Positions 231 to 16,071 of a stretch of 64,000 bases of DNA are shown in pieces. How positions within the stretch are numbered: position 1 is the stretch's first letter; the number at the start of each line of letters is the position of its first letter. This stretch comes from a virus: the IMG/VR virus record IMGVR_UViG_3300025010_000048, positions 8,331-72,330 of that record; one strand, written 5' to 3'. The notes beneath the pieces are model-generated. The model made no database searches. It had not been told where the DNA came from and saw only the letters and a list, made by a program, of their open reading frames with translations. The position numbers were made by a program, and so were the translations under genes.

Positions 231-241
231 CCCCTACATAA

Positions 242-271
242 ACAGAAAGGGCAGGGCGATAAACCCTGCCC
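242..271 (-). terminator. Intrinsic terminator after major capsid gene
   Basis: GGGCAGGG-tttatcg-CCCTGCCC followed by TTTCTGTT on minus strand. Confidence 0.65.
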
Positions 272-285
272 TAATATTCATTAAT

Positions 286-1647
286 CTAGCTAGGATTACA
301 GCCATAGATAAAGCTGAAATCATCCCAACCATAAGAGAAACGTGCAATTGTCGCATACTTAGCAATTTCAGTGTCGAAGTCCTCAGTTGCCTTAAATCCA
401 GGTTGCCTTCTCCAATACCAATTTAAGAATTGCTTCATTCTCTCGCTATCACACATGCCATATGTTAACTGTATGTTTCCATGCAGAGCAGACTATATCA
501 TCCCTTTCGGGGACGGCGCTTATGGACATTATTGTTTCCTCAGTCCTAGTCGTTGAACCTTCACCCGCCCTCGTCTCTATTGACTACATCGGGTGCTTGG
601 CTGCTGATTTCCCATTGTTTCATCCACTAACTTTTCAAGCCATCACATTCACCGTTACCAGTCGTGTTGTGGCATAGTGGTTTTAGGGGGTTCCAGCAAT
701 TCACCGTCTTTGCAATTATATCTGTGAACATTTTTTCATAATCTTTTTCATGTCCATTGACCTTACTTCTATGACAGTCATCGCAAAGCGAAATTAAGTT
801 ATTTTTGTCAAATATTTTAGATGGATCTTCTTTTACTGTTATTATATGAAAAAGATTGTCAACGGACTAATTAGATTACTAATTGGTATCACATATATAA
901 TGGGTCCTAGTGTTTGAACCAAGCGTTAGCGTCTGTCAACCAAGGCCATTCAACTACATTGAACACGCCTTTCCAGACGTTTACGCCGTGGTCGGTTGTC
1001 CCAGGCTTTTCCTCAGTATCGGCAATAACCCTTGCAGGTTCAAATAATTCAGTCGGCACGATCAGAGTATCCGGCATAACCAAGAATGGATTACCCTTAT
1101 CGTCCTCCCAACGACGCATATTGTTTCTAACGGTAGTCACGTTAGCGGCAGTCAGCGCATATGTGCCGAAGTTTGAAGTTACGGCAGAACTTCCAGGTGC
1201 TTTCGGGTGCGATGCAGAACAAAGAGCAACCCCATCTGGACCGGCATAAGATGCGTTAAAAGCGTTATTAAACGGTATAGCAGCATGATACTGAATAGTT
1301 CTATATTCAACCATACGGAGATTACGGACACGCTTTTTAATCTCGCCGTATTGTTCGTCCTCAACTAACTCGCGCTCAATCTGTGTACCTTTAGAATATT
1401 TACGGTGAATATAGTTAGAAGTGAAACCTTTCCTAAAGTCCTCATAAGAAACTTTATTCCCTGTTGCTCCCCATTCTTCCATTAACCCTAAGTCACCGAT
1501 GCCCTGATTAGTTTCCTGCGCTTTTGTGGAGTTTTCCACGTTATACATCAGACCAAGGAAGTCCTTTTCTTTCTTACCGGCCAAGTCAAATATCTTCCTT
1601 AGACCAGGTTCAAGTTGCTCTGCCCAATTGTCAGAAATTAACGGCAT
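286..1647 (-). CDS. Major capsid protein (Mu gpT-like), spliced: exon 1 1647-917, exon 2 457-286, about 300 aa
   Basis: Exon 1 ends ...PWLTDANAW-TT; exon 2 C-ATG gives F-MCDSERMKQFLNWYWRR...FDTEIAKYATIARFSYGWDDFSFIYGCNPS*, a typical capsid C-terminus; lies after portal and scaffold genes. Confidence 0.9.
458..916 (-). ncRNA. Group I self-splicing intron in major capsid gene
   Basis: Exon ends in U with P1 GGUU/GACC U.G pair; core motifs GAATTGCTGGAA, AATCAGCAG, GTTCAACGACTA, GATATAGTC; terminal G at 458; removal restores the frame. Confidence 0.92.
627..848 (-). pseudogene. Remnant of intron-encoded HNH homing endonuclease
   Basis: HIITVKEDPSKIFDKNNLISLCDDCHRSKV is an HNH C-terminal motif; no start codon, in-frame TAG at 867-869 upstream. 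Confidence 0.75.
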
Positions 1648-1734
1648 TTGTTTTCCTCCTCAAAACAAAAAGACCCAGGCTAAAATTGCCTAAGTCTTTT
1701 GTCATTTAATTTTTATTTTAATTTGCGGTTATTG

Positions 1735-2433
1735 CTATGCATTATAGATGTGCTTGCGGATAACAACATCCATCATTAAATCGGCAGGGTAAATATTTAC
1801 TACCAACAATGGACCTGCTTCGTTGGCGATAGTAGCGTTTGCATCAATGGTATTTTCATCTTTCAGGTCAACACCAAAACTGCCAATATTAATAACGTCA
1901 CCGGAACCTCCAGCACCAAGCAGAATATACTTACTCGCGGTTGTCGGAGCAGTCGGAAATGGTTCTTCAACGGTCAGTGTGTCGCTTGAACCCGTGTAAT
2001 CCTTTACTGTGCGAATACTTCCTGCTGCCGGACCTTCGTAAATATACAGCAATGCACCATTCCAATCATCATCAGATGATGTACTTAATGCAGTGTCAAC
2101 CAAAGTAGTAGTTGTCCCGCCAGTTGCTGTAGCGTCCCTATGGTCAGCAAAAGAGCAGCGATAGACAATAAATGGATTATCATATACCCTACCGTAAGTT
2201 GTTGTCGCTGCCGGATTGTCTGCTGCTGCAATAGTCTCAGCCATTACGCCAAGTACATTAGTCGCGTTTGCTGCCGCTTTAGCAACCCTATTGGCAGTCA
2301 ATACAACCATGTCGCCTGCGCTAAAAGCAACGCCGGGAGTTAATTCATAATCGACTGCGTTATCTACAGTCCCGCCAAGTTTGTTATATTTAGGTTCAAA
2401 CCCATTTGTAGTTCTAGATGCAGTTAAAGCCAT
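1735..2433 (-). CDS. Putative capsid decoration / minor head protein
   Basis: Ala/Thr/Gly-rich 232 aa between scaffold and major capsid genes. Confidence 0.6.
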   Translation of the reverse strand: MALTASRTTNGFEPKYNKLGGTVDNAVDYELTPGVAFSAGDMVVLTANRVAKAAANATNVLGVMAETIAAADNPAATTTYGRVYDNPFIVYRCSFADHRDATATGGTTTTLVDTALSTSSDDDWNGALLYIYEGPAAGSIRTVKDYTGSSDTLTVEEPFPTAPTTASKYILLGAGGSGDVINIGSFGVDLKDENTIDANATIANEAGPLLVVNIYPADLMMDVVIRKHIYNA

Positions 2434-2442
2434 TTTCTCAAC

Positions 2443-3423
2443 CTACCTTCTTTTCTTAGATTTTTTCGTTATACCGGAGGCAAAATCTTTTTCGGACATA
2501 TCTAGCCTTGCGGCGAAATGTTTTTGCAGCGGAGTTAAATCAACCTGCTCGGATTTACTTCCTACCGGCAGGTTAGCATCTTCAACCCTAAGTTTTTGGC
2601 GACCTTTAATATTGGCAAGCGTCTTTTGTTCGGCGGCAGTTTTTACTGATTTCCTTAATTCTCCAGATGTAAACTTTTCACCGATAACAAACTTCATAGC
2701 AGTTTCAAAATCAATGGCGGCACCATTTTGACTTACCGCATCAATCTCGGCAGCGTACATAATAGCATATGGTCTAATTTGAGGATTACTATTTAATACC
2801 GCCTGCCTTTGCCTTTCGTAGTCAGTTGACTTTCCGGTAAATTCAATCTGTTGTTTTGCGCTAATCAGTTCTTGTTCAAGTCGGGCAATTCTCTGCTCCT
2901 TCTTAATTTCTTCCGAAGCAAGTTTCTTTGCCTTTGTTTCATCAAAACCAAGTGCAGCGAAATATTCCTCTTTCTCCGTCTGCTGTTCTATCCAATAGGT
3001 TTTTGCCTCTGCCTCTACCTGCGCCTGACGTTTCTCTGCCTGCTTATCAGCTTCAATTTTTGCTCTCTCACGGGAAAGTCTATCCGCTAATACCCGGTCA
3101 ATTTCTGTCTGCATTTCTGCTTTCGTGTATGTTTTTTCTTTAACGGTAGGTTCTTTTTTTAATTCCGGTTCTTGTTCAACTTCTTCTTCCCTTAAGTCCT
3201 CGTCCCCACCGGAAAAATCGTCGCTTACCTCATCGTCAGTTGGCAACTCAACGAGTTCAACGTCCTTATCGCCGTCTTTGTCTGGAATATTTGGATCGTC
3301 AATTTCGGTATCATCAACAAAACCACCGCCAGAAAAACCACCATCCGTTACCATTAAAGCGCGATTGAATCTGCCTAAGAATTTATCTTCTGCCGCATTA
3401 ATTCCTAATAAGTCTTTAAACAT
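2443..3423 (-). CDS. Putative capsid scaffolding protein
   Basis: Acidic N-terminus, YTxxEM...RLSRER coiled coil, basic tail; position between portal and capsid. Confidence 0.7.
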   Translation of the reverse strand: MFKDLLGINAAEDKFLGRFNRALMVTDGGFSGGGFVDDTEIDDPNIPDKDGDKDVELVELPTDDEVSDDFSGGDEDLREEEVEQEPELKKEPTVKEKTYTKAEMQTEIDRVLADRLSRERAKIEADKQAEKRQAQVEAEAKTYWIEQQTEKEEYFAALGFDETKAKKLASEEIKKEQRIARLEQELISAKQQIEFTGKSTDYERQRQAVLNSNPQIRPYAIMYAAEIDAVSQNGAAIDFETAMKFVIGEKFTSGELRKSVKTAAEQKTLANIKGRQKLRVEDANLPVGSKSEQVDLTPLQKHFAARLDMSEKDFASGITKKSKKRR

Positions 3424-3543
3424 AATTTGCCTCCCGTTTTAAACCCGTCGGTTATAATATCCTTGCACAGTTTAAAGTCTTGTGCATGTTTTGGACTGTT
3501 CCTTGCGGTTTTTAACGTCTACAGCACGTTTCAGACATTTATG

Positions 3544-5544
3544 CTATACATCTTGTTGTATTAATAATTGCAGTTCTGACATCATTTGTTCTGGCGGTAG
3601 GGACATTAGGTATTCCCTAATCTCCGGAGGCAATTGAGATAAAATTTGTTCTATCTCGTTACCTTGTTGTGAAACTTCTTCCTGCTCAGGAGGTTGTTCT
3701 CCAGGAACAGAACTTCTTTTCATTGCTTCCTGCTCCATTTCCATCCGTTGCTGTTCTTCCTTCTGCTTATTCATTCTCTCCATAATTTCGGGTATGGGAG
3801 GGAACTTGCCGTATTCCATAACATAGAAGAAAGTTTCCGGATCAATGACACTTGCTACCAATAAATCCTTAGCTATTTCCATATGATACATGCGGTCACT
3901 CGGTATTACCGATGAAACTTTACAGTAACAATCAAAGTCAGGGAAGTATTCCTCAAAATCCTTTTGGTAGGTATTGGCATCTAACATCCTGCCGTCCGGC
4001 ATTATTGTTTCTCCGGTATTTAACTTTCCTACCTCATTAAAAGGCATGGTTATGCCGTTTTCTTTGTCGTAAACCTTTTTCATTTCATCAGCATTGAAGG
4101 TGTTATACTTATAACCTTCTTTGTCGTTCTTGCCATTAATCCGGTAAGTTCTTTGCTCTGTGTAAAACTTGCCGATTAGGCGGTTAGTAAATTGACCGGC
4201 ATCCTCATAGGAAGAATTAATTTCCTGCTCTGCTGTCCTTAACCTTATCTTAGCTTGGGAAACTAGCTCGGCAATTGCCTTAAATGCGGTTACGCTGCCG
4301 GGAGTTCTGCCTTGACTTACATCAAAACGACCTATCATGCCCTCCATAGAGGACTGTAAACGCCCCATTTCCTGTATTAGACTGCCGGGAATAGGTTGTC
4401 CATGCTCTCGCTTAACCCCTTGAATATCGGCAACCGGGAACCACATGCCGGGGGCAGTACCACGTTCCTCAATTAACCTCTTTTGTCTAGGAGTAAGCGA
4501 CCTTTCATCATACCAGGTTTGCCCAATGGCCCCGTGAATATGACCTTCAAGTATAATCTCAGCAGTCTTATTCCTAACAATTTGCGGATTCTTAAGATAG
4601 AACGCATCGCCAAATCCCCAAACGCTATTTTCTCTTGGGTATCTCTGCCGCACAAAAAACGGAAATACCGGAGTTTCTCCGGGGTCGAAGTACATATAGT
4701 TACTGTGTCTAAGATAAACTCCTTGATGTTCTCCTGCCCATAAAATAACGTGTAAACCTATTCCCTGGTCTTGTTCTCCTGGTGCTAAAATCATCGGTTT
4801 GCCAATATACCATGTTTCAATAACGGGAACCTGTTCTTGGTTATATGAGCGACTAAAACCTTCGGTATCAAGTTGGTCAGTATCCAGCAAATCATCGTCG
4901 TGCAACCCTTGTTCTTGAACCAACTTTGCCCTATCGGGGAAGTTCTCTTGTATATACTCCATTGTGCGCCATACGGGTTTATGGCAACGATTTCCCTCAT
5001 TTATATCCTCCCGACAACGTGCATCAGGCACTAGGCATAACGGGTGCAATGCTTTCCAGCGAATATCGCCTTCCCATCTGTTCGGACCTTTGCCACCTCG
5101 CCAATTAGAGTCCCAATAGATATGCCAAATACCTGTGCCGTACAGAAAAAACCACCGAAGAAACTTAATTCTCTCGGAGGTTAGTTTGTTCTTATAGAAT
5201 AAGAATTTTTTAAGGTCGGTCATAATATTAGATTTTTCTTCGTCACCCGGTTCAACGCCCTGGTCTATTAACTCTATCTCGTTAGCAAACTCGGCTACCG
5301 TACCTTCTATTAGAGAAAAGGTAATATTCTCAACGCTGTTCGGTCTATTCTGTTGCTGTGCCTCGGTTCTTAGCGGATTACCATTCGGACCAAGTAAGTC
5401 CCAATGCCTAGAAGTATAGAGTTTATACATTTCCCGCATTTCATCGACATAAAATTGCCTTGCCGCTTTATCATCGTCATACCAATCCATACAAATTCTA
5501 ACGGCATCACTTTCTGCCTGTGAATTTCCTCTTACGTTTTCCAT
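3544..5544 (-). CDS. Portal protein (P22-like)
   Basis: 666 aa, LYGTGIW and ENSVWGFG motifs, Gln-rich C-terminal barrel-like tail. Confidence 0.85.
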   Translation of the reverse strand: MENVRGNSQAESDAVRICMDWYDDDKAARQFYVDEMREMYKLYTSRHWDLLGPNGNPLRTEAQQQNRPNSVENITFSLIEGTVAEFANEIELIDQGVEPGDEEKSNIMTDLKKFLFYKNKLTSERIKFLRWFFLYGTGIWHIYWDSNWRGGKGPNRWEGDIRWKALHPLCLVPDARCREDINEGNRCHKPVWRTMEYIQENFPDRAKLVQEQGLHDDDLLDTDQLDTEGFSRSYNQEQVPVIETWYIGKPMILAPGEQDQGIGLHVILWAGEHQGVYLRHSNYMYFDPGETPVFPFFVRQRYPRENSVWGFGDAFYLKNPQIVRNKTAEIILEGHIHGAIGQTWYDERSLTPRQKRLIEERGTAPGMWFPVADIQGVKREHGQPIPGSLIQEMGRLQSSMEGMIGRFDVSQGRTPGSVTAFKAIAELVSQAKIRLRTAEQEINSSYEDAGQFTNRLIGKFYTEQRTYRINGKNDKEGYKYNTFNADEMKKVYDKENGITMPFNEVGKLNTGETIMPDGRMLDANTYQKDFEEYFPDFDCYCKVSSVIPSDRMYHMEIAKDLLVASVIDPETFFYVMEYGKFPPIPEIMERMNKQKEEQQRMEMEQEAMKRSSVPGEQPPEQEEVSQQGNEIEQILSQLPPEIREYLMSLPPEQMMSELQLLIQQDV

Positions 5545-5565
5545 AGTTCACCACCTTTTAGGCAT

Positions 5566-5628
5566 AAAAAATAGAGGTAGAGTATAAGACAATGCCAATA
5601 ATGACACTTTCCTACACCCTACCTCTAT
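5566..5628 (-). terminator. Terminator/attenuator in the portal leader
   Basis: ATAGAGGTAG...CTACCTCTAT followed by T-run on minus strand. Confidence 0.55.
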
Positions 5629-5654
5629 CGTTCTCGATTCGAGATATTGGTTAT

Positions 5655-6092
5655 TTAGTTATCGTCTAAATCATCACATAGTGTTGCGTAGAAGTTTTGG
5701 ACTGCTTTTATTGTACGATCATTGCGCTCTGCCCGTTCTTCTGGAGTATATTGCTTCCTTGGAGGATAAGCGTCTATATGCCATTTTTGAGCATAATACC
5801 AAGCATAGAAATCATTATAACCCCATACAGTAATAGCTTTTTCGCACTCACTAAATAATCCGTTTTCTTCCCAAACATTTTCTTCCGCATAACCTGTTTC
5901 AATGTTCTTGAAGGGATAGTTACTACCCTCGTATTTAGCCTCTAAGTCTGCCTCATGCTCAGAATAGACTAAAACACTATGCCCCTCATGCTCTTTTAGG
6001 AGAGTAGGCATCATGCGGATAGTGGTTGTATCCTTGCCAATATCATAATATTTCTTGCAGTCCTCACACACAAAAGTATATTCAGTTCCCAC
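5655..6092 (-). CDS. Hypothetical zinc-binding protein (CxxC...EHEGH)
   Basis: ORF; motifs shared with 11930-12373. Confidence 0.55.
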   Translation of the reverse strand: MGTEYTFVCEDCKKYYDIGKDTTTIRMMPTLLKEHEGHSVLVYSEHEADLEAKYEGSNYPFKNIETGYAEENVWEENGLFSECEKAITVWGYNDFYAWYYAQKWHIDAYPPRKQYTPEERAERNDRTIKAVQNFYATLCDDLDDN

Positions 6093-6109
6093 AATAACAC
6101 CGTCCTCGG

Positions 6110-6394
6110 TTATTTAGTTTCCTTCTCATACCTGTCAATCCAAGGTTTTAATTCTTTATGGAATTCTGATGGCAATAAAAAATCATTCAGTACCAGTTCG
6201 CCAATAAATAAAATCTTATCTTCTGTACAGTTTTTATGTAGCCAATCATAGAATTTTACACGTTTTTCATGTATTACTGCTTGCCTACGCATATATTCAT
6301 CGCGTCTATCAAGACTTTTTGAAAAACTTTCCCTAAACTTATCAAAAGCATCAACAGTTAATTCTACTGTCTGTGTGTTCGAATGGTTTTGCAC
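6110..6394 (-). CDS. Hypothetical protein
   Basis: ORF in operon orientation, preceded by repeated hairpin/RBS motif. Confidence 0.55.
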   Translation of the reverse strand: MQNHSNTQTVELTVDAFDKFRESFSKSLDRRDEYMRRQAVIHEKRVKFYDWLHKNCTEDKILFIGELVLNDFLLPSEFHKELKPWIDRYEKETK

Positions 6395-6540
6395 TATGTC
6401 ACCGTCCTCGGTTATTATTTCTTCTTCCCGTAACCCATACCCTTTCCCATTTCTTTCTTTTCGGACTTAGGCATCGACATACCTTTACCCATGCCCTTCA
6501 TACCTTTACCGCCCTTACAACCTGCCATTGTTACCACCTC

Positions 6541-6675
6541 CTAATCTAATTTAATATCCTTAGTAGGACTTATCATAACTACCCTGCCGCCCTTTGCTTT
6601 GACGGTAAGTGTTCCCCATCCTCCAAGGTTGCGTAGTTCTAAAATGACTTTCTTTTCTGCATCAGTTAGTTGCAT
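6541..6675 (-). CDS. 44-aa DUF2292/YezD-like small protein
   Basis: GGAGG RBS; MQLTDAEKKVILELRNLGGWGTLTVKSKGRQVVMISPTKDIKLD; below ORF-track cutoff. Confidence 0.55.
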   Translation of the reverse strand: MQLTDAEKKVILELRNLGGWGTLTVKAKGGRVVMISPTKDIKLD

Positions 6676-6842
6676 CGTTTACCTCCATAAACCCTTTCTG
6701 CTTCTTTGCCGGAAAGGATATAACTTTCTCCTTTAACCATACTCCTATATTCAAAACTACCATTCCACTCTTGAATTTCCTCTGCCGTTGCTAATTGTAT
6801 GCTTTTTATTTTAGCCACTTTTATTACCTCCGGTTATCCGTT

Positions 6843-7133
6843 TTAGTTATTGCATTCAGGCATATCACAAATAAACATCACATGATTAATAGGTACTCTT
6901 ACGGTATCGCTAAACATAAGTTCGTTAGTTGTTAAAACAACAGCATCACTAATAATATAGCAACCGTCCTTTTCCTTATATTCTCCGGTGTAGTATATTT
7001 TATATTCACCCAATAAAAACATAATTTTTATTTTTAATTTTGGATTATGACTAACAGAAATCCATTGTATATTATTAAGACTAAGCATTAAGTCACGTTC
7101 TCTTAATGCCTGTCTAATTGTTAATTCGCTCAT
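6843..7133 (-). CDS. Hypothetical protein
   Basis: ORF with GGAG RBS. Confidence 0.5.
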   Translation of the reverse strand: MSELTIRQALRERDLMLSLNNIQWISVSHNPKLKIKIMFLLGEYKIYYTGEYKEKDGCYIISDAVVLTTNELMFSDTVRVPINHVMFICDMPECNN

Positions 7134-7145
7134 TTAAGGTTCTCC

Positions 7146-7469
7146 TTATCTATACTTTGTTTCCTCAACAACAAACCTATTCCCCCGCTTCCTGCCGATA
7201 ACCATTATCTTAATCAACTTATCATCCGCTAAATATCCCAATTCCTTTGGGCAGATAGATAACGGTATTGATATAGAGTTGTCAGACTCTTCTTCTGTTT
7301 CCGGTTCTTCGGCAACGTCCGGCACTTCAATAAATTCTTCATCGTTGATAGTTTCGCTTATGTGACTGTCCTTGCCTGCCTCTTTCTTACATAGTCGGCA
7401 ATGAAGGAGAAACTTACTTACGCTATCGAAATCAGTTTCCGGTTTTCCGCATACCTTACACTTTCTCAC
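7146..7469 (-). CDS. Hypothetical protein with N-terminal zinc finger
   Basis: CKVC...HCRLC. Confidence 0.55.
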   Translation of the reverse strand: MRKCKVCGKPETDFDSVSKFLLHCRLCKKEAGKDSHISETINDEEFIEVPDVAEEPETEEESDNSISIPLSICPKELGYLADDKLIKIMVIGRKRGNRFVVEETKYR

Positions 7470-7804
7470 GAATAAAACCCCTTTTCTTCCTCTCTTGCGT
7501 TGCGTTCCTCGGCAGTTTCTACCTGTTTTACATCGTCCTCATGCGTACCTTCGGGGTATTCAAGGGGAATGTCAACGCCCTCTAGGGATAGGACTGCTCG
7601 CATAAGTTTAAGTTGTGTATCGACAAGAGTTTTGATTGTGTCGGCATCCACTTCGGTAGGGTCATTAATAAACGATATTTTACCAACTTCATTGCTCATG
7701 TCGGTAATGTTCAAGAAAGGGAAAGTAGCTAAAGAAACAACAACTTGATGTAAAGCATCAATCTGATCGTCAAGTACCTTTTTATATTTAAGAATATCTA
7801 CCAT
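7466..7804 (-). CDS. Hypothetical protein
   Basis: ORF, ATG after GGAG RBS. Confidence 0.5.
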   Translation of the reverse strand: MVDILKYKKVLDDQIDALHQVVVSLATFPFLNITDMSNEVGKISFINDPTEVDADTIKTLVDTQLKLMRAVLSLEGVDIPLEYPEGTHEDDVKQVETAEERNAREEEKGFYS

Positions 7805-8297
7805 TATAGGTTCTCCCTTCAATCAGAAAATCAACTCCATACCTAGGTACATAGTATTTTTCAAACATATTCTTATCTTTTAACCAGATAACTTCTTCCG
7901 GTCTAGTAGGTTTTTTGTAAAAACCAACAAATTCTTCATATTCTTCTGGAGTTATACTAGAATCGTTATATCCACACTGTATACGAGTAATTAAATAAGA
8001 CCAATCATCGCAATCAATAACTGGGCCAATATTACCCGAAGTAACACGCCTAACAAATACTCTCTTTCCTAAAGATTTTTGATATTCAATTTCATCTATA
8101 ACCATTTTTATGTGAGCAGGAACTAGTTCATCTACATGGTAAACCATTTTTAACTTATCAAGAGTTCTGTACTTTCTTCCTGGTTTCCATAATGCTGTTA
8201 TCATTTTTATAGCATTTTCACATCCAAGAGCAACATCCAGTACGTGAGATTGCGGCATTGATAATAAATAATTCCTAAATTCTTGCAATGTTTTCAT
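7788..8297 (-). CDS. Hypothetical protein
   Basis: 169-aa ORF with AGGAG RBS. Confidence 0.55.
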   Translation of the reverse strand: MKTLQEFRNYLLSMPQSHVLDVALGCENAIKMITALWKPGRKYRTLDKLKMVYHVDELVPAHIKMVIDEIEYQKSLGKRVFVRRVTSGNIGPVIDCDDWSYLITRIQCGYNDSSITPEEYEEFVGFYKKPTRPEEVIWLKDKNMFEKYYVPRYGVDFLIEGRTYNGRYS

Positions 8298-8577
8298 TTG
8301 AGTTTTCTCCTTCTGGATTATTGAATATAATCGTACTTATATCTTGTGGATTAGACATATCTATACCAACAAAATATTGTGATATGCGATAAATAGCATC
8401 AATTAGAGTCTGCATCTTTTTCACTTTCTCTAATGCGCTATTACAATCACCGAGGTCAATTCCTCGTACTTGCTTACCTAATGGTGCTTCTCCATTAAGT
8501 TCTCCGTCAGCACCATAAAATTTTACGACCATTGTTATTTGAGAAACCTTTTCCGCATTTTCAAATACATGATCCAT
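8275..8577 (-). CDS. Hypothetical protein (paralog of 8577-8855)
   Basis: Coupled ORF; LEKVKKMQTLIDAIY. Confidence 0.55.
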   Translation of the reverse strand: MDHVFENAEKVSQITMVVKFYGADGELNGEAPLGKQVRGIDLGDCNSALEKVKKMQTLIDAIYRISQYFVGIDMSNPQDISTIIFNNPEGENSNENIARI

Positions 8578-8855
8578 TATAGGTTATCCCTTATAGAAGT
8601 ATTAGATTTTTCTTCTAAACCTTCAATTTTTTGAAATGTTATTGAACTGTACTCAATCCCGATTAACTCCTGCATTTTCCAATAAACAGCCCTTGTGATT
8701 TCTTGAATTGCTTTTACTTTCTCCTGTAAATTTTTGTAATTACTTAATCTCATTCCTTTTACATATGTTTTTAATGGTACTTCTTCTCCTGTCTTATCGT
8801 CAAAGGTATAAGTAGATACCTTTGCACCTATACAAACAATACTGTCATCTTGCAT
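8577..8855 (-). CDS. Hypothetical protein (paralog of 8275-8577)
   Basis: GGGAG RBS; LQEKVKAIQEITRAVY. Confidence 0.55.
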   Translation of the reverse strand: MQDDSIVCIGAKVSTYTFDDKTGEEVPLKTYVKGMRLSNYKNLQEKVKAIQEITRAVYWKMQELIGIEYSSITFQKIEGLEEKSNTSIRDNL

Positions 8856-8879
8856 ATTTTAAGTCCTCCCTTTTTAATG

Positions 8880-10526
8880 TTACATTCCGTAGAATCCCGG
8901 TAATCCTTCTTGTTCCTCATCGTCCTCATCTTCTGCCCATTGTTCCATTGACTGAGCATTCAACCTTCTGCCCTTATCTTGACCAGGGAGAAAGGGAATG
9001 CTGTCGTTATTCTTAAAGGCAGTAGTCATATGAATATGTACTCCGATAGCACACATTATAATTACATCATCATGCTGCCCACCCCTTGCCGCTTCTTTTC
9101 CGTTTGGGTGTCGGACAAAATTCATCGCTTCATCAACAAAGCGTTTCCAATAACACTCGAATACTCCTTCACGCACAACCTTTTTAATGGCATCAACGAT
9201 TAACGGACGAGTCTTAGGAGTTGTATACCATCCTAGCTTCTGCCTTGTTTGGTCGCTGCGCTTATCGTAAACTTGCGTTCTGTATATATCATAGTAAACA
9301 CGTTTAAGGTGACTGATTGTAGTTAGACCATGATTATTGCCCTCCGGTACTAGCATAGGCAGACCGTAGTATACGGCTAGTCTGTGCATATAGTCGGCTA
9401 AAACGTCCGGTTCAACGTGTCCATGATAGACAGCATCTAACCTTAATCTATGCCGGTTAACAACGCCCACAGCATCGAAGTCGCCATGCTCTAAACCTTC
9501 GGCAACGTCAGCAGGTATTAGATATTCCGCGCCCTTCTCAGGATGGAACCATATCTCGTATTCGCCCTTTTCTTCGGGTTGCCAATAGACTTGTACCTTT
9601 GCCGGACTTGTCCATATGAGGTTTCCACGCTCGCCGGGATAGCAGTTCTTCTGCATTTCAGCTATTCTGCCGATATTAAAAGAACATTTACCGGGCATAA
9701 TAAAACGCCCATATTTCCGCGCTTCTAACTCCGCCTCATCCATAGACGCTTCAAGGCGTTTCTTTTCATTTGCTGATAAATAAGGGTTATCGTTCCATTC
9801 AACCATTATCAAGAATATTTCATCGTCACGTTTTTCAATAGGTTTCGAGTCATTAAGATAGATGTCGTTATATACCCATGTCATACCTTGTAGCGGAGTC
9901 ATTGTTCCAAATAAATCACCCTCGGTATCCATAAGGCGCATCATTATTTCCGTGTATATATCCTTGGGACTTTCTTCGTCAAGCCACGCCCAATGCTGAG
10001 ATGAACCTTGAAACTTCTCTCTGCCTTGGTCGTAGGACTTAAATCCGATAATCCCACCCCCGACAAGGCGTATAGTGTCGATAATGCCTGTACTGCGGTA
10101 GGTTATCTTTTTAATCTCCCTTAATGGCAATAATCCAGGTATTCCGGTTTCAACATCACCCAATATTTTCTTTTGAGTAACGTCCCTTTGTACCTCGAAG
10201 GATACTGAACATACCCAACCACGGGTAGGTTTTCCGCCAAAACGAGTTATCAGAGGTTCGTACTTCTCTCTTAAATCATCCGGCCAATCTATAAGATAAG
10301 GGCGTATTCTCTCACCTAATGCAAGGAATACTGCCCTAATTGCGCCAGATTCCGTTTTTCCTGTACGATTCCCACCCAGTATCCAGCTATTCCTTTTATT
10401 GGATAATAGAAACTTTTCTTGCTTATCGTAGGGCCGGATAAAACGAATATGTTCTTCTTTTTGCCGCCGTTCTAGTTCATTAATAAACCGTAACGCTTCT
10501 TTTTCCTTTGCTGTTAGTTTTGCCAT
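8880..10526 (-). CDS. terL: Terminase large subunit
   Basis: Walker A GGNRTGKT, Walker B WAWLDEE, TMTP coupling motif, nuclease DVAEG...HDD. Confidence 0.95.
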   Translation of the reverse strand: MAKLTAKEKEALRFINELERRQKEEHIRFIRPYDKQEKFLLSNKRNSWILGGNRTGKTESGAIRAVFLALGERIRPYLIDWPDDLREKYEPLITRFGGKPTRGWVCSVSFEVQRDVTQKKILGDVETGIPGLLPLREIKKITYRSTGIIDTIRLVGGGIIGFKSYDQGREKFQGSSQHWAWLDEESPKDIYTEIMMRLMDTEGDLFGTMTPLQGMTWVYNDIYLNDSKPIEKRDDEIFLIMVEWNDNPYLSANEKKRLEASMDEAELEARKYGRFIMPGKCSFNIGRIAEMQKNCYPGERGNLIWTSPAKVQVYWQPEEKGEYEIWFHPEKGAEYLIPADVAEGLEHGDFDAVGVVNRHRLRLDAVYHGHVEPDVLADYMHRLAVYYGLPMLVPEGNNHGLTTISHLKRVYYDIYRTQVYDKRSDQTRQKLGWYTTPKTRPLIVDAIKKVVREGVFECYWKRFVDEAMNFVRHPNGKEAARGGQHDDVIIMCAIGVHIHMTTAFKNNDSIPFLPGQDKGRRLNAQSMEQWAEDEDDEEQEGLPGFYGM

Positions 10527-10541
10527 GTTGTCACCTAAACG

Positions 10542-11270
10542 CTATGCAGTAGCCAACGTACCTTCCAACTGAACCATAAACGCCGGTGGGTTAGCATTTG
10601 TGCCGTTAGTAATAGAAAACTTAACTATCTCACCTGCCGCCAATATCTTGTAGGTTGCGGATAATGCGCCTAAACTTGCCGCCGTACCGGATGCCGGAAA
10701 CGCTGTTCCAGTATTGTATGTTTTGGTAACGATAGCACTTGAACCATTCTTAACCACGACAACGCAGGTATTAGAATCGTCAATACCTGCCGGTGCGCCC
10801 TGAGATAGTACTTTAATGTCGGTTAATGTTAGTGCGTAACCAGTAGGTATTACCAGTAGTGGTCTATCTGCTATGTCTGCATCTGCTGATAAATCCTCAA
10901 TTTGATAGGAGAATATTTTAGCATTAGCAGCGTTTAGTTGCGCTGCGGTTATAGTGGAACTTGCTAGTTTATTTAACTCTGCAGCGGTTGCTGTAACCGA
11001 AGTTCCTGCAGCTGCACCTAGTTTTAAGTCTGCTACTGCCAATACATCTACGTTTTTATTGGTTCCTAAAACGAGTGCCTTACCTGCTACCGCTGTACCG
11101 GCAACTGATGTGTCGATTAAATTAAGTTCTGCTGCCGATGCGGTTACTGCTGTACCGGATTGATATAGCACACCTGTTGGACCTGCTACCTGTACCTCTG
11201 CACCTTCTGGACCGGCGAATAATCCTTCTTCGCCGGATGGTTTGCCGATGTGTGTATATTCTTTTGCCAT
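10542..11270 (-). CDS. Putative virion structural protein
   Basis: Ala/Thr-rich, repeated VTA(S/T)AAELN. Confidence 0.5.
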   Translation of the reverse strand: MAKEYTHIGKPSGEEGLFAGPEGAEVQVAGPTGVLYQSGTAVTASAAELNLIDTSVAGTAVAGKALVLGTNKNVDVLAVADLKLGAAAGTSVTATAAELNKLASSTITAAQLNAANAKIFSYQIEDLSADADIADRPLLVIPTGYALTLTDIKVLSQGAPAGIDDSNTCVVVVKNGSSAIVTKTYNTGTAFPASGTAASLGALSATYKILAAGEIVKFSITNGTNANPPAFMVQLEGTLATA

Positions 11271-11283
11271 TGATTGTTCCTCC

Positions 11284-11619
11284 TTAGAATGTTAATTTAT
11301 TATCCTTAAGTACCTGATATAATCCTGCTTCGAGTGCCGTTATTTGCCGATGTTCTAAATTAATTTCAAGACTTTGATTAATTGCCTCAATTATCTCATG
11401 CAGAAAAGTTGATTCAATCTGACTTTGAGTTTTATTTTTATTTACTCGGATAGTATTGGTGTTTGGATTCATGCTACCATAATTGCTTGTTTCGTTATCG
11501 TCAAGCATAATGACTTTGAAATCATGCCCAAGGATTTTAAGGCTATTTGGTATTTTAGGGCCAATCCATTCACATGCCAATCCTTCCGGAAATTTATGCT
11601 CAGAGCAATTCATGCACAT
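11284..11619 (-). CDS. Phage metallopeptidase-like protein
   Basis: TFLHEIIEA (HExxE variant of HExxH). Confidence 0.6.
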   Translation of the reverse strand: MCMNCSEHKFPEGLACEWIGPKIPNSLKILGHDFKVIMLDDNETSNYGSMNPNTNTIRVNKNKTQSQIESTFLHEIIEAINQSLEINLEHRQITALEAGLYQVLKDNKLTF

Positions 11620-11646
11620 TCTTTACACCGTCCTCGGTATTTTTAT

Positions 11647-11913
11647 TTAACAGTCCCATTTATCCAGGGCTAATTTCTTCCTCGTTGGTCTGCCCTTTTC
11701 ATCCTTCATAGGTCCCGGCATACCACCCATACGAGCACAGAAGGACTTTCTTCTTGCCGCTGATTTAGGTGATTTTTTAGCTTGTTCCTTAGATACGGGA
11801 GGTTTAAGATTACTGCCGGGGTTTTCTTTTTCGTAGGACTTACGACCTTTCTCTGTTAATCCTCCAGTTTTACTTTTCCCTTCTGCCCTAGTCCAAGCAG
11901 GAGTTTTAGGCAT
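11647..11913 (-). CDS. Small basic phage protein (DUF6321-like)
   Basis: AWTRAEGK...GGLTEKGR...RRKSFCARM...WDC. Confidence 0.7.
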   Translation of the reverse strand: MPKTPAWTRAEGKSKTGGLTEKGRKSYEKENPGSNLKPPVSKEQAKKSPKSAARRKSFCARMGGMPGPMKDEKGRPTRKKLALDKWDC

Positions 11914-11929
11914 ATTGTCACCACCTGTT

Positions 11930-12373
11930 TTAGTCTATAAATTTAGGTATCAATAAACCACTTTCCGTTTCCTCTACATATATATCTATATCATTTACAA
12001 CATCATCAACGGTAACAGACTTAGTTATCTTTGGACTACTATCACAACTTGTATCAGACTCCATATTGATATACTCGTATTCGGAGAATCCTTCGCACAA
12101 TAATTCATCTTGCCTACCATATACTCCATCTACATATAGATTGCCGTTACTCTCCGAACAATGATCATCTGACCATGCAAACCAATCATGTCCTTCATGT
12201 TCAATAAGACATTTATGGAAATTTTGATTCTTAGACAAACTCTTGTTTTCACCATCTAAGGCATCGTATTCTTTAATTGTTCCTACATGATCAAGCCAAC
12301 TTAAATATGAACCATATCCAAGATAATAAGTCTTTTTGCAGTCAACACAGGTGAAATTTCCACTCCTACCCAT
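11930..12373 (-). CDS. Hypothetical zinc-binding protein
   Basis: CVDC...EHEGH. Confidence 0.55.
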   Translation of the reverse strand: MGRSGNFTCVDCKKTYYLGYGSYLSWLDHVGTIKEYDALDGENKSLSKNQNFHKCLIEHEGHDWFAWSDDHCSESNGNLYVDGVYGRQDELLCEGFSEYEYINMESDTSCDSSPKITKSVTVDDVVNDIDIYVEETESGLLIPKFID

Positions 12374-12454
12374 ACACTACACCCCTGTTCTCAGTGGTCT
12401 CGGAATTTATAGAGAAATTTTTAAAAATTTTAGGTTGCCGGAAAAATGGTTTTT

Positions 12455-12751
12455 CTAATCTGAAATGGGGATGGGGTGGTACTGTAATTCCGCTATCCTT
12501 AACTCTATGTCATTCTTAATAATGTTCATTGCATCATCGAATCTGCCGTTAACAATAACCTCTCTGCCGATAGATATGTTAATATCGTACCTGTCGGATG
12601 ACTGGTTCTTAGATGCAGTAACCTTAATAAAGTCAGATAGGTATAGTTCATTTGTAGGTTTCTGGGAATATAGTTCGTTGACATACTTATCAAACGACTT
12701 CTTTATTTCGGGAGATAGTTCTTTTTGCCAGTTAGATGATGTTAGCACATT
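12455..12751 (-). CDS. Hypothetical protein
   Basis: ORF with GGAGG RBS; exact start uncertain. Confidence 0.45.
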   Translation of the reverse strand, partial: NVLTSSNWQKELSPEIKKSFDKYVNELYSQKPTNELYLSDFIKVTASKNQSSDRYDINISIGREVIVNGRFDDAMNIIKNDIELRIAELQYHPIPISD

Positions 12752-13087
12752 GACACCTCCGTTCTCGGTTGATGGATAATGGATGTTTTAATATGAATGA
12801 TATAGATTGTTGATAAAATTTATAAATTGGTGTGATCTGTGTTGGTACTATATATACTAATGCAACCCCACCCCCGGTACCGATTGTCTCATAGGGGGGG
12901 TGATCGCACAGGCACAGCTACAGGGCCGGCGCACAGGCCAGCACAATGGTACAATGTAGGTTAACAACCCTAGGGTTGCGACTACTACAAATAATGGTAG
13001 ATTGTCTTTTTGGGGTGGACTACTGCCGGTTTTATTATTGACAGCTTCAAGAAACCCAGTAAACACAAGGCCTACAGCGTTTTAGGT

Positions 13088-13115
13088 AGTTAACATAATA
13101 TTTATTATCGGTACT
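13088..13115. other. dif-like XerC/XerD recombination site
   Basis: Minus strand AGTACCGATAA-TAAATA-TTATGTTAACT: 11-6-11 layout with near-canonical XerD arm. Confidence 0.8.
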
Positions 13116-13118
13116 TAG

Positions 13119-13511
13119 TTATTCTCCTAATACTTCCTTGGCTTTTCGGGCTAATTCTGCAGAAGTGAGTTCCAACTCCACAGGGCCGCCGTCTTTGCCG
13201 GTCAGCTGAAGTTGTTGTGTATCGCTCCAGCCGTGGTTTTTCATCCAAAAAATAGCTCCGGCAGGATTCTTGCCGGAAAACAAGCTAGACTCCACAAAAC
13301 GCTCTACTTTTGCCTTTGCCTTTTTAAGAACGTGTGAAAACTCTTCTACTTCGGACCAATCAATCAGTCCTCGTCTATCCGTCCCAATCGCCAAAGCTAA
13401 TCCTGTAATTGTTAAAGGTTCGCCCTTTTCTTCACACTCAGCAAAATAAGCATCTATTAAAGGTTGCATTTCTTCGCCGCTCTTATATTTTCTCGGTCTA
13501 CCTCCTGGCAT
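13119..13511 (-). CDS. terS: Terminase small subunit (DNA-packaging gp3-like)
   Basis: GRPRKY...PLTITGLALAIG...GAIFWMKN; upstream of terL. Confidence 0.85.
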   Translation of the reverse strand: MPGGRPRKYKSGEEMQPLIDAYFAECEEKGEPLTITGLALAIGTDRRGLIDWSEVEEFSHVLKKAKAKVERFVESSLFSGKNPAGAIFWMKNHGWSDTQQLQLTGKDGGPVELELTSAELARKAKEVLGE

Positions 13512-13659
13512 AACTTCACCTCATCTCAATACTTCTACAAACAAAAAAACTCAGCTCTACCCACAAAGCAGGCAAAACTCAATTCTCAATCAAATTTAAC
13601 CCCTCTCACAGCCCCATACAGCCGAGATAATCATGTTGCAGGTGTTTTGTACCTGCAAG

Positions 13660-14250
13660 TTATCCCTTAGCCATATACGACCGGTTAACGTAATAATGAC
13701 TACCCTTTTTAAACATCACACCGGTATTAATCAACGGATTAACTCTGTTGTAAGCATTTCGCTTAGTCTCTCCGATTTTTTCAGCTATATCATTAATTGT
13801 TAATTTCTCCTTAGTTTTCCGGTCTATTAGTGCACCGCTATGCCAATCAATTAAAGGCGCAACCGATATTAAAAAACCTATATCGTTATAACTGAGTCTG
13901 TCAGCTAATTCCATTAGTTTTTCGTTATACAGTTTAACGTATGTAGGTTTATTTGTGCTTCTTTTTTTTGGAGGGTTTTTATTCTCTCCTTTTTTATGCC
14001 AAAAACCGTAATATTCGTGTTCTATCTCCGCATCTCTAATGTGAATGTATTCAGATTGCTTGTCCGGCGCTTCTTCCCTCGTAAATATAGCTTGTGCGGT
14101 TGTAGCGTTTACACCTAACGGAAATATACCGTTTTCCGGTTTATTATGCCAGACTTCAGCTATCATTTCCCCTGTTTCCGGATCTATAACTTGTCTGCGC
14201 TTTCTGCCATAACCAAAGTCATCATCCAGTATCAAGCATCTTTTAATCAA
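13660..14250 (-). CDS. RepL-like / winged-HTH protein
   Basis: YVKLY...C-terminal HTH ending YYVNRSY. Confidence 0.5.
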   Translation of the reverse strand: MIKRCLILDDDFGYGRKRRQVIDPETGEMIAEVWHNKPENGIFPLGVNATTAQAIFTREEAPDKQSEYIHIRDAEIEHEYYGFWHKKGENKNPPKKRSTNKPTYVKLYNEKLMELADRLSYNDIGFLISVAPLIDWHSGALIDRKTKEKLTINDIAEKIGETKRNAYNRVNPLINTGVMFKKGSHYYVNRSYMAKG

Positions 14251-14478
14251 ACAAAAATCAACTCACTTTTTCGATATATATAATAGCAAATCACACCTTA
14301 AAACCGCAAAACCTTGATATTGCTGGGCTAAAGCCTATTTTAGTTGTGAACGAATCGTTCACATAGTATTTAATACTAGATACATAAAAAATAAGCTAAA
14401 TATACATAATTACAACTTCCCCATATTAATATAATACTGCATGTAGTAAATTACTACCCTATACGGTAATTGAAAAAC

Positions 14479-14928
14479 TCACAAAGCAACACTTCCAAAC
14501 AGCTGCACCGCAAACCTATGTATAGCACTTTTCCGCAAATTATAGATGCTACGTTCCGTGCTGTAGTTCAGTTTCTCCGCGATCTTCTCCTTGGTCAACT
14601 GGTCTATATACCACATTCTCAATACTTGTCCAAAAAGCTGACACTTATCCGTCCGCGATATCGCCTCCAAAGTCTCATCAATCTCCTTAAGCTGTTGCGC
14701 TGTCAATTCCCGATTCTCCTGCAACTCCACAATATTATAAAACAAAAAGCCGGTATTATCGTTTCTACTCCCTCTTACTCCGGTTTCGTCCAAAATAGCT
14801 GCTCGCATCTGCCGGGGACAAGTAGACATAGACAATCTCCGGATCTGCCTGTCCATATTTTCCACGGCCAACTGCATGTCCACATAAAACTCTAAAACTT
14901 TCTCCGCCTGCTCAATATAATCTATCAT
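14479..14928 (-). CDS. Late transcriptional activator (ArpU/RinA-like)
   Basis: C-terminal IAEKLNYS...YNLRKSAIHRFA sigma4-like HTH; upstream of terS. Confidence 0.75.
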   Translation of the reverse strand: MIDYIEQAEKVLEFYVDMQLAVENMDRQIRRLSMSTCPRQMRAAILDETGVRGSRNDNTGFLFYNIVELQENRELTAQQLKEIDETLEAISRTDKCQLFGQVLRMWYIDQLTKEKIAEKLNYSTERSIYNLRKSAIHRFAVQLFGSVAL

Positions 14929-15285
14929 TTTACTCCTCCAATATTATCAGCTAAATATATCTATATTATATATATTTTTCAGCGAAATCTCAATAATCAG
15001 CACCGGCAAGTTAATAAGACAGTTAATAAACCGCTAACCATGCGGTTTATTCTTTTTACCTTCACCCGCAACAAAAAACACCCTCCACAACAGCCTCATA
15101 TAGCCACACAAAACACCCTTCAAGTAGTTTTATACCTGCAATTCCTGTTTGACGTTCTGAAAGCTATTTTAAGGCATTTGTCTTGTTTCTTCTATTATAT
15201 GCGGCGAAAAGTTTATACAATACGGTATTTACACCATAACGATATAGTAGTATTATATATCTATCATCAAAAAGGAGTTGATTAA

Positions 15286-15474
15286 ATGGCAGTAGGTCCA
15301 AACACAACGCAGATAACTTTTTACGTCAGCAAAGACTTAAAAGAGCGAGTCAAGCGGGCAGTCGAAAAATTAAATAATTCCGAATTGGGTAAAGTTTCCA
15401 TAGGTACGATCGGCACAATAGCCCTGGAACAATACCTCGCAAGCCTTGAAAACACTACAAAAACTCAGGGATAA
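15286..15474 (+). CDS. Ribbon-helix-helix regulator
   Basis: AGGAG RBS; QITFYVSKDLKERV. Confidence 0.6.
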   Translation: MAVGPNTTQITFYVSKDLKERVKRAVEKLNNSELGKVSIGTIGTIALEQYLASLENTTKTQG

Positions 15475-15504
15475 AAATTCCCTGATAATTTTTTAAATAA
15501 AGTG

Positions 15505-15536
15505 TTGACACTGTGTTTATACTGTGATAATATAAT
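15505..15536 (+). promoter_or_regulatory. Sigma-A promoter of early small-gene region
   Basis: TTGACA-17 nt-TAATAT, AT-rich upstream element. Confidence 0.65.
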
Positions 15537-15575
15537 AATCAAGAACAGCGAGACACAAACGAAGGGGGAAACGAA

Positions 15576-15788
15576 ATGACCAATAAAGAATTAAAACAGC
15601 AGGCATTAGACCTAAAACTGCAAATGAGTCGCCGCCGGGTGGCATGTGCTAACGGTAACGACATAATAAAGTTAATGCAATGTCACCAAGCAGGAGACTA
15701 CGCACCAATGCAAGAAACCAAACTATATAATAAATACTCCGGCGAATACTGCGAATACTTGGAAATATTAAACAAACAACCTGCCTGA
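15576..15788 (+). CDS. Hypothetical early protein
   Basis: GGGGG RBS. Confidence 0.6.
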   Translation: MTNKELKQQALDLKLQMSRRRVACANGNDIIKLMQCHQAGDYAPMQETKLYNKYSGEYCEYLEILNKQPA

Positions 15789-15828
15789 CGGGCTGTAGAC
15801 AGCGAAAACGGGGAAACCCGTTAGCAGG
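15780..15828 (+). ncRNA. Type I hammerhead ribozyme-like element (A9G core variant)
   Basis: CCTGC-CTGACGG-GCTG taga CAGC-GAAA-ACGGG gaaa CCCGT-TA-GCAGG. Confidence 0.7.
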
Positions 15829-15855
15829 ATAAACTAAATACGAGGGGGATAAAAA

Positions 15856-16071
15856 ATGATAAAAAGAATTTTTAACGGCGAAGGTTACACGATTACATTA
15901 GTAACTGACCTGGGTAATACGGAAATTCCAGGAAGAAGTATAACTGAAATAGAAGTACCGGAAGGCGCACAATTTAACTCAGATAACTTCTATATACATG
16001 AGGACGGGTTGTGGTACGCTAAAACAGAAGATTGCTTCACCGGCGCAGATATGGAAATCTACTCCGAATAG
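15856..16071 (+). CDS. Hypothetical early protein
   Basis: GAGGGG RBS. Confidence 0.6.
   Translation: MIKRIFNGEGYTITLVTDLGNTEIPGRSITEIEVPEGAQFNSDNFYIHEDGLWYAKTEDCFTGADMEIYSE

Follow-up and report, generated by a model that had tools for sequence, protein, structure and literature searches.

What is the role of the small RNA hairpins that recur, with a kept loop and changing stems, through the packaging operon of the virus IMGVR_UViG_3300025010_000048? The stretch of DNA analysed here (the window, 64,000 nucleotides) comprises bases 8331-72330 of this 72,330-bp IMG/VR virus record, which was rated complete by CheckV. An initial annotation had noticed seven of these hairpins and proposed that they belong to an antitermination system analogous to lambda N/nut, with a 44-aa protein encoded among them as the candidate antiterminator, or alternatively to a translational control system for late genes. 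The hairpin motif is real, strongly non-random and specific to one clade of phages, and in our best reading the element is, in kind, a start-associated sequence (SAS-like) rather than a nut site. Judged from their position and conservation, there is about an even chance that the hairpins act as a translation-initiation element at the ribosome-binding site (RBS) that doubles as a linker between gene cassettes.

The element is built from a stem of 3-5 bp with a G-C closing pair and an AGRA tetraloop, which is ATAA in two copies. Reading of the minus strand together with a hairpin scan recovered in place all seven hairpins noticed initially, and the scan added four more (8870-8861, 8590-8581, 7817-7808 and 7148-7135). 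As had been claimed, all copies are intergenic, some of them overlapping a stop codon by 1-3 nt, and their link to RBSs is equally clear: 10 of the 17 genes from the small terminase gene (TerS) to the portal gene are led by a hairpin directly upstream of the start codon, while the copy at 5638-5627 precedes a long hairpin instead. In the direction of transcription, CCG-AGAA-CGG (12759-12768; 20.0 bits) runs with its 3' arm into the Shine-Dalgarno (SD) sequence GGAGGTG ahead of the GTG at 12748 (97-aa open reading frame, ORF), and CTG-AGAA-CAG (12385-12394) is followed by GGGGTG and the ATG at 12373 of a 147-aa ORF. The 13-mer that we call class A, (AT)ACCG-AGGA-CGGT(GT), lies at 11625-11640 (core 11627-11638), 5-7 nt before the ATG at 11619 of a 111-aa M78-like ORF, and its hairpin there has a folding energy of -6.3 kcal/mol. 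Further along are GGG-AGGA-CTT (8861-8870; 23.9 bits), with the SD within its 5' arm and loop and the ATG at 8855; the variant GGG-ATAA-CCT (8581-8590), 3 nt upstream of the ATG at 8577; GGG-AGAA-CCT (7808-7817), 3 nt upstream of the ATG at 7804 of a 112-aa gene (7466-7804); TAAGG-AGAA-CCTTA (7135-7148; z -3.5), the stem of which begins with the upstream stop codon TAA and which precedes the ATG at 7133; and the variant CGG-ATAA-CCG (6831-6840), followed by GGAGGT and the GTG at 6818, which in relatives stands immediately 5' of the 44-aa gene. Two more class A copies (ACCG-AGGA-CGGT) are found at 6401-6412 (24.7 bits), 2 nt past a TAA stop and with a GTG (6394) 6 nt downstream, and at 6099-6110 (25.4 bits), where the hairpin shares the last base of the upstream TAA and is followed by the GTG at 6092. 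The copy next to the long hairpin, ATCG-AGAA-CGAT (5627-5638), scores 16.4 bits and was outside the model's training set. All eleven hairpins belong to the minus strand. Outside the operon there is a single strong copy, GGG-AGAA-CTT (33781-33790, plus strand; 21.6 bits, E 0.0045), which again lies at an RBS, that of a Gp3-like gene.

The distribution of the motif is far from that expected by chance. In the interval 5566-12780 there are 14 GAGRAC hexamers on the sense strand, of which 9 are enclosed by a stem of at least 3 bp, and none on the antisense strand, while 1000 dinucleotide shuffles of the same interval gave a mean of 0.57 and a maximum of 4 hairpins against the 9 observed. Given this strand difference and the excess over shuffled sequence, the motif is not equally common in coding or antisense positions. 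Elsewhere in the window (56.8 kb), 3 of 26 hexamers on the plus strand and 4 of 24 on the minus strand form a hairpin. An exact-match search of the 72,330-bp record located the 13-mer ACCGAGGACGGTG at three sites, all on the minus strand. Three related records, each taken as a whole, contain CCGAGRACGG 2, 3 and 3 times, on one strand per record, with 0 occurrences of a reversed control, and all copies that could be placed lie in the packaging region. An exact 14-mer scan of IMG/VR returned at least 118 stretches, most of them with single chance-like matches, and the multi-copy contigs all belong to this clade. An Rfam scan of window positions 1-16000 at E<=1 returned a group I intron alone and no family at the hairpins. 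A role as promoter was rejected because only 0-14 nt lie between the end of the motif and the start codons; promoter-like sites were not enriched either (28 versus 34.8 expected).

The relatives used for comparison were ten IMG/VR contigs found with the large terminase TerL (77-96% identity; L004-L012 and L014) and two clade members from the motif scan (L096 and L126); in four more loci (L085, L154, L168 and L200) the motif and a near-identical 44-aa gene are both present. All of these relatives carry many hairpins, without exception on the coding strand and at start codons. For analysis of the stems, we collected from the window and 12 related loci every GAGRAC, paired or unpaired, located between 25 nt upstream of a called start and 3 nt inside it, considered locus genes only from families with at least two members, and dropped identical 26-nt contexts, which left 44 contexts. 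Both positions flanking the hexamer are paired in 43 of these 44 start-linked contexts, compared with 30 of 124 other GAGRAC contexts on either strand (Fisher p = 4e-19). When the 44 contexts are aligned without gaps, 86.4% of stem cells are paired versus 60.9% after shuffling, a value that none of 500 shuffles reached, and the covariation score is 0.579 versus 0.141 in shuffled alignments; sliding the partners leaves 14-44% of cells paired. The first variable pair is CG in 19 contexts, GC in 15, UA in 6 and GU in 4, and the second is CG in 26, GU in 12, AU in 4, GC in 1 and another combination in 1, while a fourth stem pair is present in only 21 of the 44. Across the clade the stems include ACCG/CGGT, ACGG/CCGT, ACGG/CTGT, CCG/CGG, CGG/CCG, CTG/CAG and GGG/CCT, as well as AGG/CCT, GGG/CTC, GTG/CAT, GAG/CTC and ATG/CAT. 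The compensatory change of stems around a kept loop that had been proposed for this element is therefore borne out for comparisons between sites, where outer bases covary. What might vaguely be called a conserved RBS thereby becomes a testable hypothesis on a 12-14-nt RNA structure, for which the natural stem variants are built-in compensatory mutants.

At the RBS the hairpin and the SD are interwoven in more than one way. In class A the 3' arm CGGT merges into GGTG, which serves as an SD elsewhere in this genome, about 5-7 nt before the start; in CCG-AGAA-CGG-AGGTG, CTG-AGAA-CAG-GGGTG and CGG-ATAA-CCG-GAGGT, one or two G residues are common to the 3' arm and the SD; and in GGG-AGAA-CCT and ACGG-AGGA-CCGT the SD is made of the 5' arm and the loop. 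The copies at the ten hairpin-led genes of the window lie from 12 nt to 1 nt ahead of the start, and when the 12 related loci are included, the stem ends between 16 nt upstream of the start and 2 nt within it (+16 to -2 nt), so that every start-linked copy would fall within the region that a 30S subunit must occupy. For 8 of the 10 window copies, an upstream stop codon is no more than 10 nt away or inside the stem, and terminating ribosomes could thus open the hairpin, although close upstream stops are to be expected for any RBS element where genes are so tightly packed. Isolated hairpins have dG37 values from +2.4 to -2.9 kcal/mol and, with 30 nt of context on each side, pair probabilities from 0.00 to 1.00 at both 37 C and 12 C, which indicates that several copies would not fold by themselves and that most are too weak to do so reliably. 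The core at orthologous sites, for example TAACCGAGGACGGTG or AACCGAGAACGG, does not change although the flanks on both sides do, and conservation beyond any SD is seen for the ACC of ACCGAGGACGGTG and the CCT of GGGAGAACCT. The weakness of the stems together with the invariance of the whole 13-15-mer would favour a trans-acting factor over a purely thermodynamic switch.

These observations lend themselves to a model in which the hairpins are cis elements on the late polycistronic mRNA transcribed from the minus strand, placed within the ribosome-binding regions of small genes in the TerS-TerL-portal interval, where whatever forms or binds at the hairpin would be predicted to affect 30S binding and hence translation initiation. 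If so, it is somewhat more likely than not that a trans-acting factor (a phage or host protein, or rRNA) recognises the element; a somewhat smaller but still substantial share of the probability goes to unaided occlusion of the SD, relieved by translational coupling from ribosomes that terminate 0-10 nt upstream. The same linkers, which run from stop codon through hairpin and SD to start codon, could also provide short homologies for the gain and loss of gene cassettes. The translational-control alternative of the initial annotation fits a real, strand-specific, RBS-linked hairpin that covaries between sites, and, should a binding factor exist, the element would be a compact, portable part for translational control. 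Several points weigh against this model. The copies are related to each other as paralogues and orthologues and amount to about 11 distinct stem types, so the above statistics overstate their independence. The 5' arm of the GGG-AGAA-CCT class coincides with the SD, such that part of the "stem" is due to selection on the SD, and the GTG-AGRA-CAT copies at TerL include the ATG. Stems rarely change at orthologous sites, where the sole clear compensatory swap is that from CGG-ATAA-CCG to CCG-ATAA-CGG before the 44-aa gene. The copy at 5627, unchanged in 8 relatives, has no start codon after it, the varying distance to the start is odd for one single mechanism, and the genes were called with a home-made heuristic based on ORFs and SD sequences.

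The interval that carries the hairpins is also one of gene turnover. TerS, TerL and portal genes are normally adjacent; here cassettes turn over between them, and the order of genes between TerL and portal differs in each of the eight distinct contigs that cover this interval. Intergenic gaps with a hairpin measure 10-25 nt, and the same gene family is preceded by differing hairpin classes in different phages. In L005 and L011, a 22-nt repeat consisting of the motif, the spacer and ATG G flanks a 155-aa gene on both sides, while L006 has a single copy of the repeat and lacks the gene, a pattern that we read from the sequences as the footprint of an exchange between two copies. This comparison of L005 with L006 is the one clear case of an indel bounded by two motif copies. 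The window also has 754 nt that are inserted relative to L008 and hold two genes, both with a class A copy in front. The repeated RBS linkers thus mark junctions of cassette turnover inside a packaging module.

The 44-aa ORF (6541-6675, minus strand), described initially as DUF2292/YezD-like, is present in all 12 clade loci examined, and this description holds as a remote relationship though not as a direct match. The ORF itself does not match Pfam DUF2292 (PF10055) even at E<=10, and a word-based search returned near-identical proteins only; a profile of the family, however, collected 43 representatives at E<=1e-3, and PF10055 is matched by 28 of the 41 aligned profile-level homologues (best E 6.1e-08), which makes "DUF2292-like" a fair name. 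Its AlphaFold model (pLDDT 93.4) consists of a helix (residues 5-16) and a beta hairpin (21-39), for which neither a PDB sequence search nor Foldseek gave anything significant. Among the papers listed for DUF2292/YezD, the term DUF2292 occurred only in a genome announcement, and no functional study was seen among them. The gene is followed by a 37-aa basic ORF rich in Lys, Gly and Met (6415-6528, minus strand), as it is by a 33-37-aa peptide gene of this kind in several clade members, and an 80-aa database protein (P0005) fuses the two. Separately, three large proteins, P0004 (2541 aa), P0006 (877 aa) and P0025 (551 aa), contain 14, 8 and 4 tandem stretches that match the 44-aa profile.

The expected co-occurrence of the hairpin with DUF2292-like genes did not materialise. 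Nine distant loci (L203-L211), carrying homologues 49-55% identical to the 44-aa protein, contain 8 start-linked G-ARRA-C hairpins in 78.0 kb (1.03 per 10 kb), which is no enrichment over the 211 in 1784.8 kb (1.18 per 10 kb) in 179 loci without a DUF2292-like gene; in the clade there are 67 in 144.6 kb (4.63 per 10 kb). Searched with the covariance model, 267 kb of other loci gave no hit below E 0.3, and in L013, with a TerL 40% identical and a GC content of 59%, a DUF2292-like gene is accompanied by chance-like hairpin hits only. The link between protein and hairpin does not generalise. Within the clade, the TAA of the 44-aa gene abuts a class A hairpin in L004-L007 and L011, and among the distant loci the homologue's TAA abuts CCG-AAAA-CGG or CCG-AAGA-CGG, followed by an SD, in L209 and L207, while in L203 a CCG-ARRA-CGG hairpin lies 21 nt downstream of the stop; this adjacency may simply be conserved flanking DNA.

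Between the last small gene and the portal gene lies the only terminator-like structure of the operon, a long hairpin of about 27 bp with one internal mismatch (5562-5629, minus strand; -46.2 kcal/mol, z -6.9), which is followed by the U-tract AUUUUUUAU and lies 25 nt before the portal ATG. Across 8 sequences, 8 of its 39 pairs show compensatory changes. A stable, conserved stem with a U-tract is what an intrinsic terminator would present, albeit with an unusually long stem, and to judge by these features the structure may be a leaky terminator or a processing site. The 25 nt up to the portal ATG could not accommodate a promoter, and the portal and head genes must therefore be transcribed through the hairpin. 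That the small hairpin at 5627 overlaps the 5' arm of this terminator, as had been noted, is correct as far as it goes: the overlap amounts to just 3 nt at the base of the stem, and ATCG-AGAA-CGAT has an overlapping and likewise invariant competitor, the hairpin TCTCG-AAT-CGAGA, to which the consensus fold gives preference. A 4-bp hairpin that shares 3 nt with a 27-bp stem of about -40 kcal/mol could not block the formation of the latter. In two distant loci (L204 514-600 and L210 3832-3920), TAACCAAATAAC... and a long GC-rich inverted repeat that resembles the long hairpin of the window follow the DUF2292-like gene.

The long hairpin is the single feature that keeps the antitermination idea alive. 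On that idea, the 44-aa protein, with or without the 37-aa basic peptide, would bind hairpins on the nascent RNA and allow read-through before the portal gene, and it draws on the covarying, U-tract-bearing structure that has to be traversed, on the invariant small hairpin abutting it, on the constancy of the 44-aa gene (12 of 12 clade loci) and its fusion to the basic peptide in P0005, and on the hairpins next to the stop codon of this gene in five clade loci and at or 21 nt past that of its homologue in 3 of 9 distant ones. The boxB of lambda has a 5-bp stem and a GNRA-like pentaloop, with boxA (consensus YGCTCTTWA) just 5' of the hairpin, and nut sites are present in one or two promoter-proximal copies upstream of terminators and are served by the arginine-rich N protein. 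In contrast, the stems here have 3-5 bp and a 4-nt AGRA or ATAA loop; boxA-like sequences with at most one mismatch number 58 versus 61 expected, none of them beside a hairpin; and the ten RBS copies lie in a late operon rather than near a promoter. Add to this the 3-nt overlap with the long stem, the absence of hairpin enrichment in the nine distant loci relative to the 179 controls or in L013, and a 44-aa protein that has no arginine-rich motif and a model without significant structural match. Neither it nor the 37-aa peptide, which is Lys-rich and without Arg, matched an N-family entry in Pfam. In Gram-positive phages an activator-like (DUF1492) gene upstream of TerS is the usual means of late-gene control, and such a gene already stands at that place in the window. 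We therefore regard N/nut-like antitermination with a small antiterminator, as first proposed, as highly improbable. We also give a low probability to an operon-wide translational switch, in which a small phage protein would bind the loop and closing pair of AGRA hairpins acting as operators. Its targets would be some ten RBSs in the late operon together with the hairpin that precedes the portal terminator, its effect the timing of accessory cassettes, and its candidate factors the 44-aa DUF2292-like protein with its Lys-rich partner or a CxxC...CxxC protein (7146-7469); if true, a Gram-positive-type phage would have a RegA/Com-like system, and DUF2292 its first function. CsrA-type recognition, which involves a GGA in the loop, and RegB-type recognition, which involves GGAG, were set aside, as half of the loops are AGAA or ATAA and contain neither.

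Three further explanations dispense with control of translation. The hairpins might be sites for a phage or host endoribonuclease, or a means of 5' protection, that divide the late mRNA into units of individual stability; intergenic copies on one strand with a conserved loop and closing pair, a sequence-specific conservation that suits a nuclease recognition site, and a copy at 5627 that adjoins a long duplex resembling an RNase III substrate all agree with this. No nuclease gene was recognised among the operon proteins, however, and a cut within the SD would inactivate messages, as cleavage by T4 RegB does, an odd fate for genes of a late structural module, so that we consider RNA processing or stability unlikely. 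We judge it similarly unlikely that the element is a recombination linker and nothing else, a portable stop-hairpin-SD-start junction whose palindromy would have no RNA function or would serve a DNA-level recombination protein, as has been suggested for PeSL stem-loops. The indel flanked by 22-nt direct repeats, the 754-nt insertion of two motif-led genes, the exchange of hairpin classes before one gene family, the presence of stop codons in more than one frame of the linkers and the precedent of PeSL stem-loops, as far as described (PMC2839356), speak for recombination; but the core is invariant where both flanks have diverged, which argues for selection on the core itself, differing stems keep their pairing, the motif is strictly confined to one strand and to RBS positions, 13-22 nt is short for homologous exchange, and core genes (the 112-aa gene and the 44-aa gene) are hairpin-led as well. 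Finally, a repressor could bind short palindromes in DNA and block elongation during lysogeny, and many 13-mer copies in one orientation within short intergenic gaps recall the stoperators described for Cluster A (PMC3203893); the genome also has antirepressor- and recombination directionality factor-like genes. The half-sites (CCG/CGG, CTG/CAG, GGG/CCT) are too different for a sequence-specific DNA binder, the copies lie within 7 kb and not genome-wide, and they are tied to start codons, all of which leaves a stoperator-like operator very little probability. A small remainder of the probability is given to none of these readings.

The window has a GC content of about 40%, and most of its genes are preceded by canonical strong SD sequences (GGAGG, GGTGGTG), with frequent TTG starts. 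The late module occupies window positions 1-15000 on the minus strand, in the order activator-like gene, TerS, 5 small genes, TerL, 11 small genes, long hairpin and portal. The first of these (14479-14928; phrog_36/248, with DUF1492 at the cut-off score) is likely a late-gene activator; TerS (13119-13511; phrog_606, 1.4e-20) lies upstream of the hairpin-bearing genes, and TerL (8880-10526) and a P22-like portal (3544-5544) follow. TerL is at most 30% identical to its counterparts in cultured phages, which leaves the virus with no close cultured relative, and the host could not be assigned since no relative was found in the prokaryote genomes searched with the portal. Most of the small ORFs had no match in PHROGs. 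Among them, the 107-aa protein with an N-terminal CxxC...CxxC (7146-7469, minus strand) had no family match; its gene is kept in every clade locus that spans the TerL-to-portal interval, and there is a 4-nt overlap between its start and the stop codon of the gene before it. TerL has 548 aa in the window and 681-683 or 907-910 aa, in a single open frame, in relatives (L006 10001-12052, L007 4630-6675, L008 8390-11113, L009 2211-4943 and also L012), which suggests intein-like or other in-frame insertions. The group I intron (469-802, minus strand; RF00028, 61.8 bits, E 7e-14) interrupts a structural-module gene, with exon-like ORFs at 907-1647 (246 aa) and about 286-438 (50 aa); in relatives this is a single 300-aa gene, and in L006 it is split by a longer insert with a 301-aa ORF. 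Elsewhere the window encodes a TnpB/Cas12f-like protein with OrfB_IS605 and Cas12f1-like TNB domains, here within a phage genome (19742-20860, minus strand), a Gp3-like recombination directionality factor (33796-34812, plus strand), a C5 cytosine methylase (41985-43895, plus strand), a protein with a P22 antirepressor N-terminal domain (57257-58135, minus strand) and a 1505-aa polyvalent protein with an LPD38 domain (59393-63910, minus strand).

Among known systems, lambda N/nut resembles this locus in that a phage transcript carries a small hairpin whose loop is rich in purines, with a downstream terminator to be read through. The differences are the stem and loop geometry and boxA, as set out above, and the many copies embedded in the RBSs of a late operon; nor was an arginine-rich N-like protein found here. 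Phage translational operators include the targets of T4 RegA, the coat-protein hairpins of MS2 and PP7, and Mu Com-mom. As in those, an RNA element lies over the SD or start and one protein could control one or several genes, although the hairpins here are shorter, ten genes share one loop type and the binder is only putative. The PeSL cassettes of T4-type phages are described as about 100 bp in length, with a sigma-70 promoter and a stem-loop of terminator strength (PMC2839356). Both they and the present linkers are repeated intergenic stem-loops with a stop codon upstream and an SD and start downstream, in plastic regions of small ORFans where indels are bounded by two motif copies, whereas the gaps of 10-25 nt and stems of 3-5 bp seen here leave no room for a promoter.

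The closest likeness is with the SAS of Cluster K mycobacteriophages and Cluster EF Microbacterium phages (PMC3203893, PMC7302621). According to the sections of these papers concerned with it, the Cluster K SAS, GGGATAGGAGCCC, is found in 11-19 copies, 3-7 bp before starts and in one orientation, with an outer GGG...CCC symmetry (PMC3203893), and that of Cluster EF is GGGAAAGGACCCC (PMC7302621); both occupy the RBS position before genes of different families, and these sections, in 2011 and in 2020, give the function as unknown and thought to be translational. In the window, too, a short motif in one orientation, far better conserved than an ordinary RBS, is present in about ten or more copies per genome, a few nt before starts of genes of different families; its SD-like purine core lies between outer complementary bases that are conserved beyond what pairing with rRNA would explain; and it is limited to one part of the genome and one phage group. 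The consensus differs from GGGATAGGAGCCC and GGGAAAGGACCCC, as does the likely host type, the genome here being low in GC with strong GGAGG-type SD sequences. The present copies belong to the late packaging module, while those of Cluster K are described among non-structural genes, and an ESAS-like upstream inverted repeat is not seen here. The most telling difference may be that the stems at this locus vary and yet stay complementary, a feature not reported in the SAS sections of those papers.

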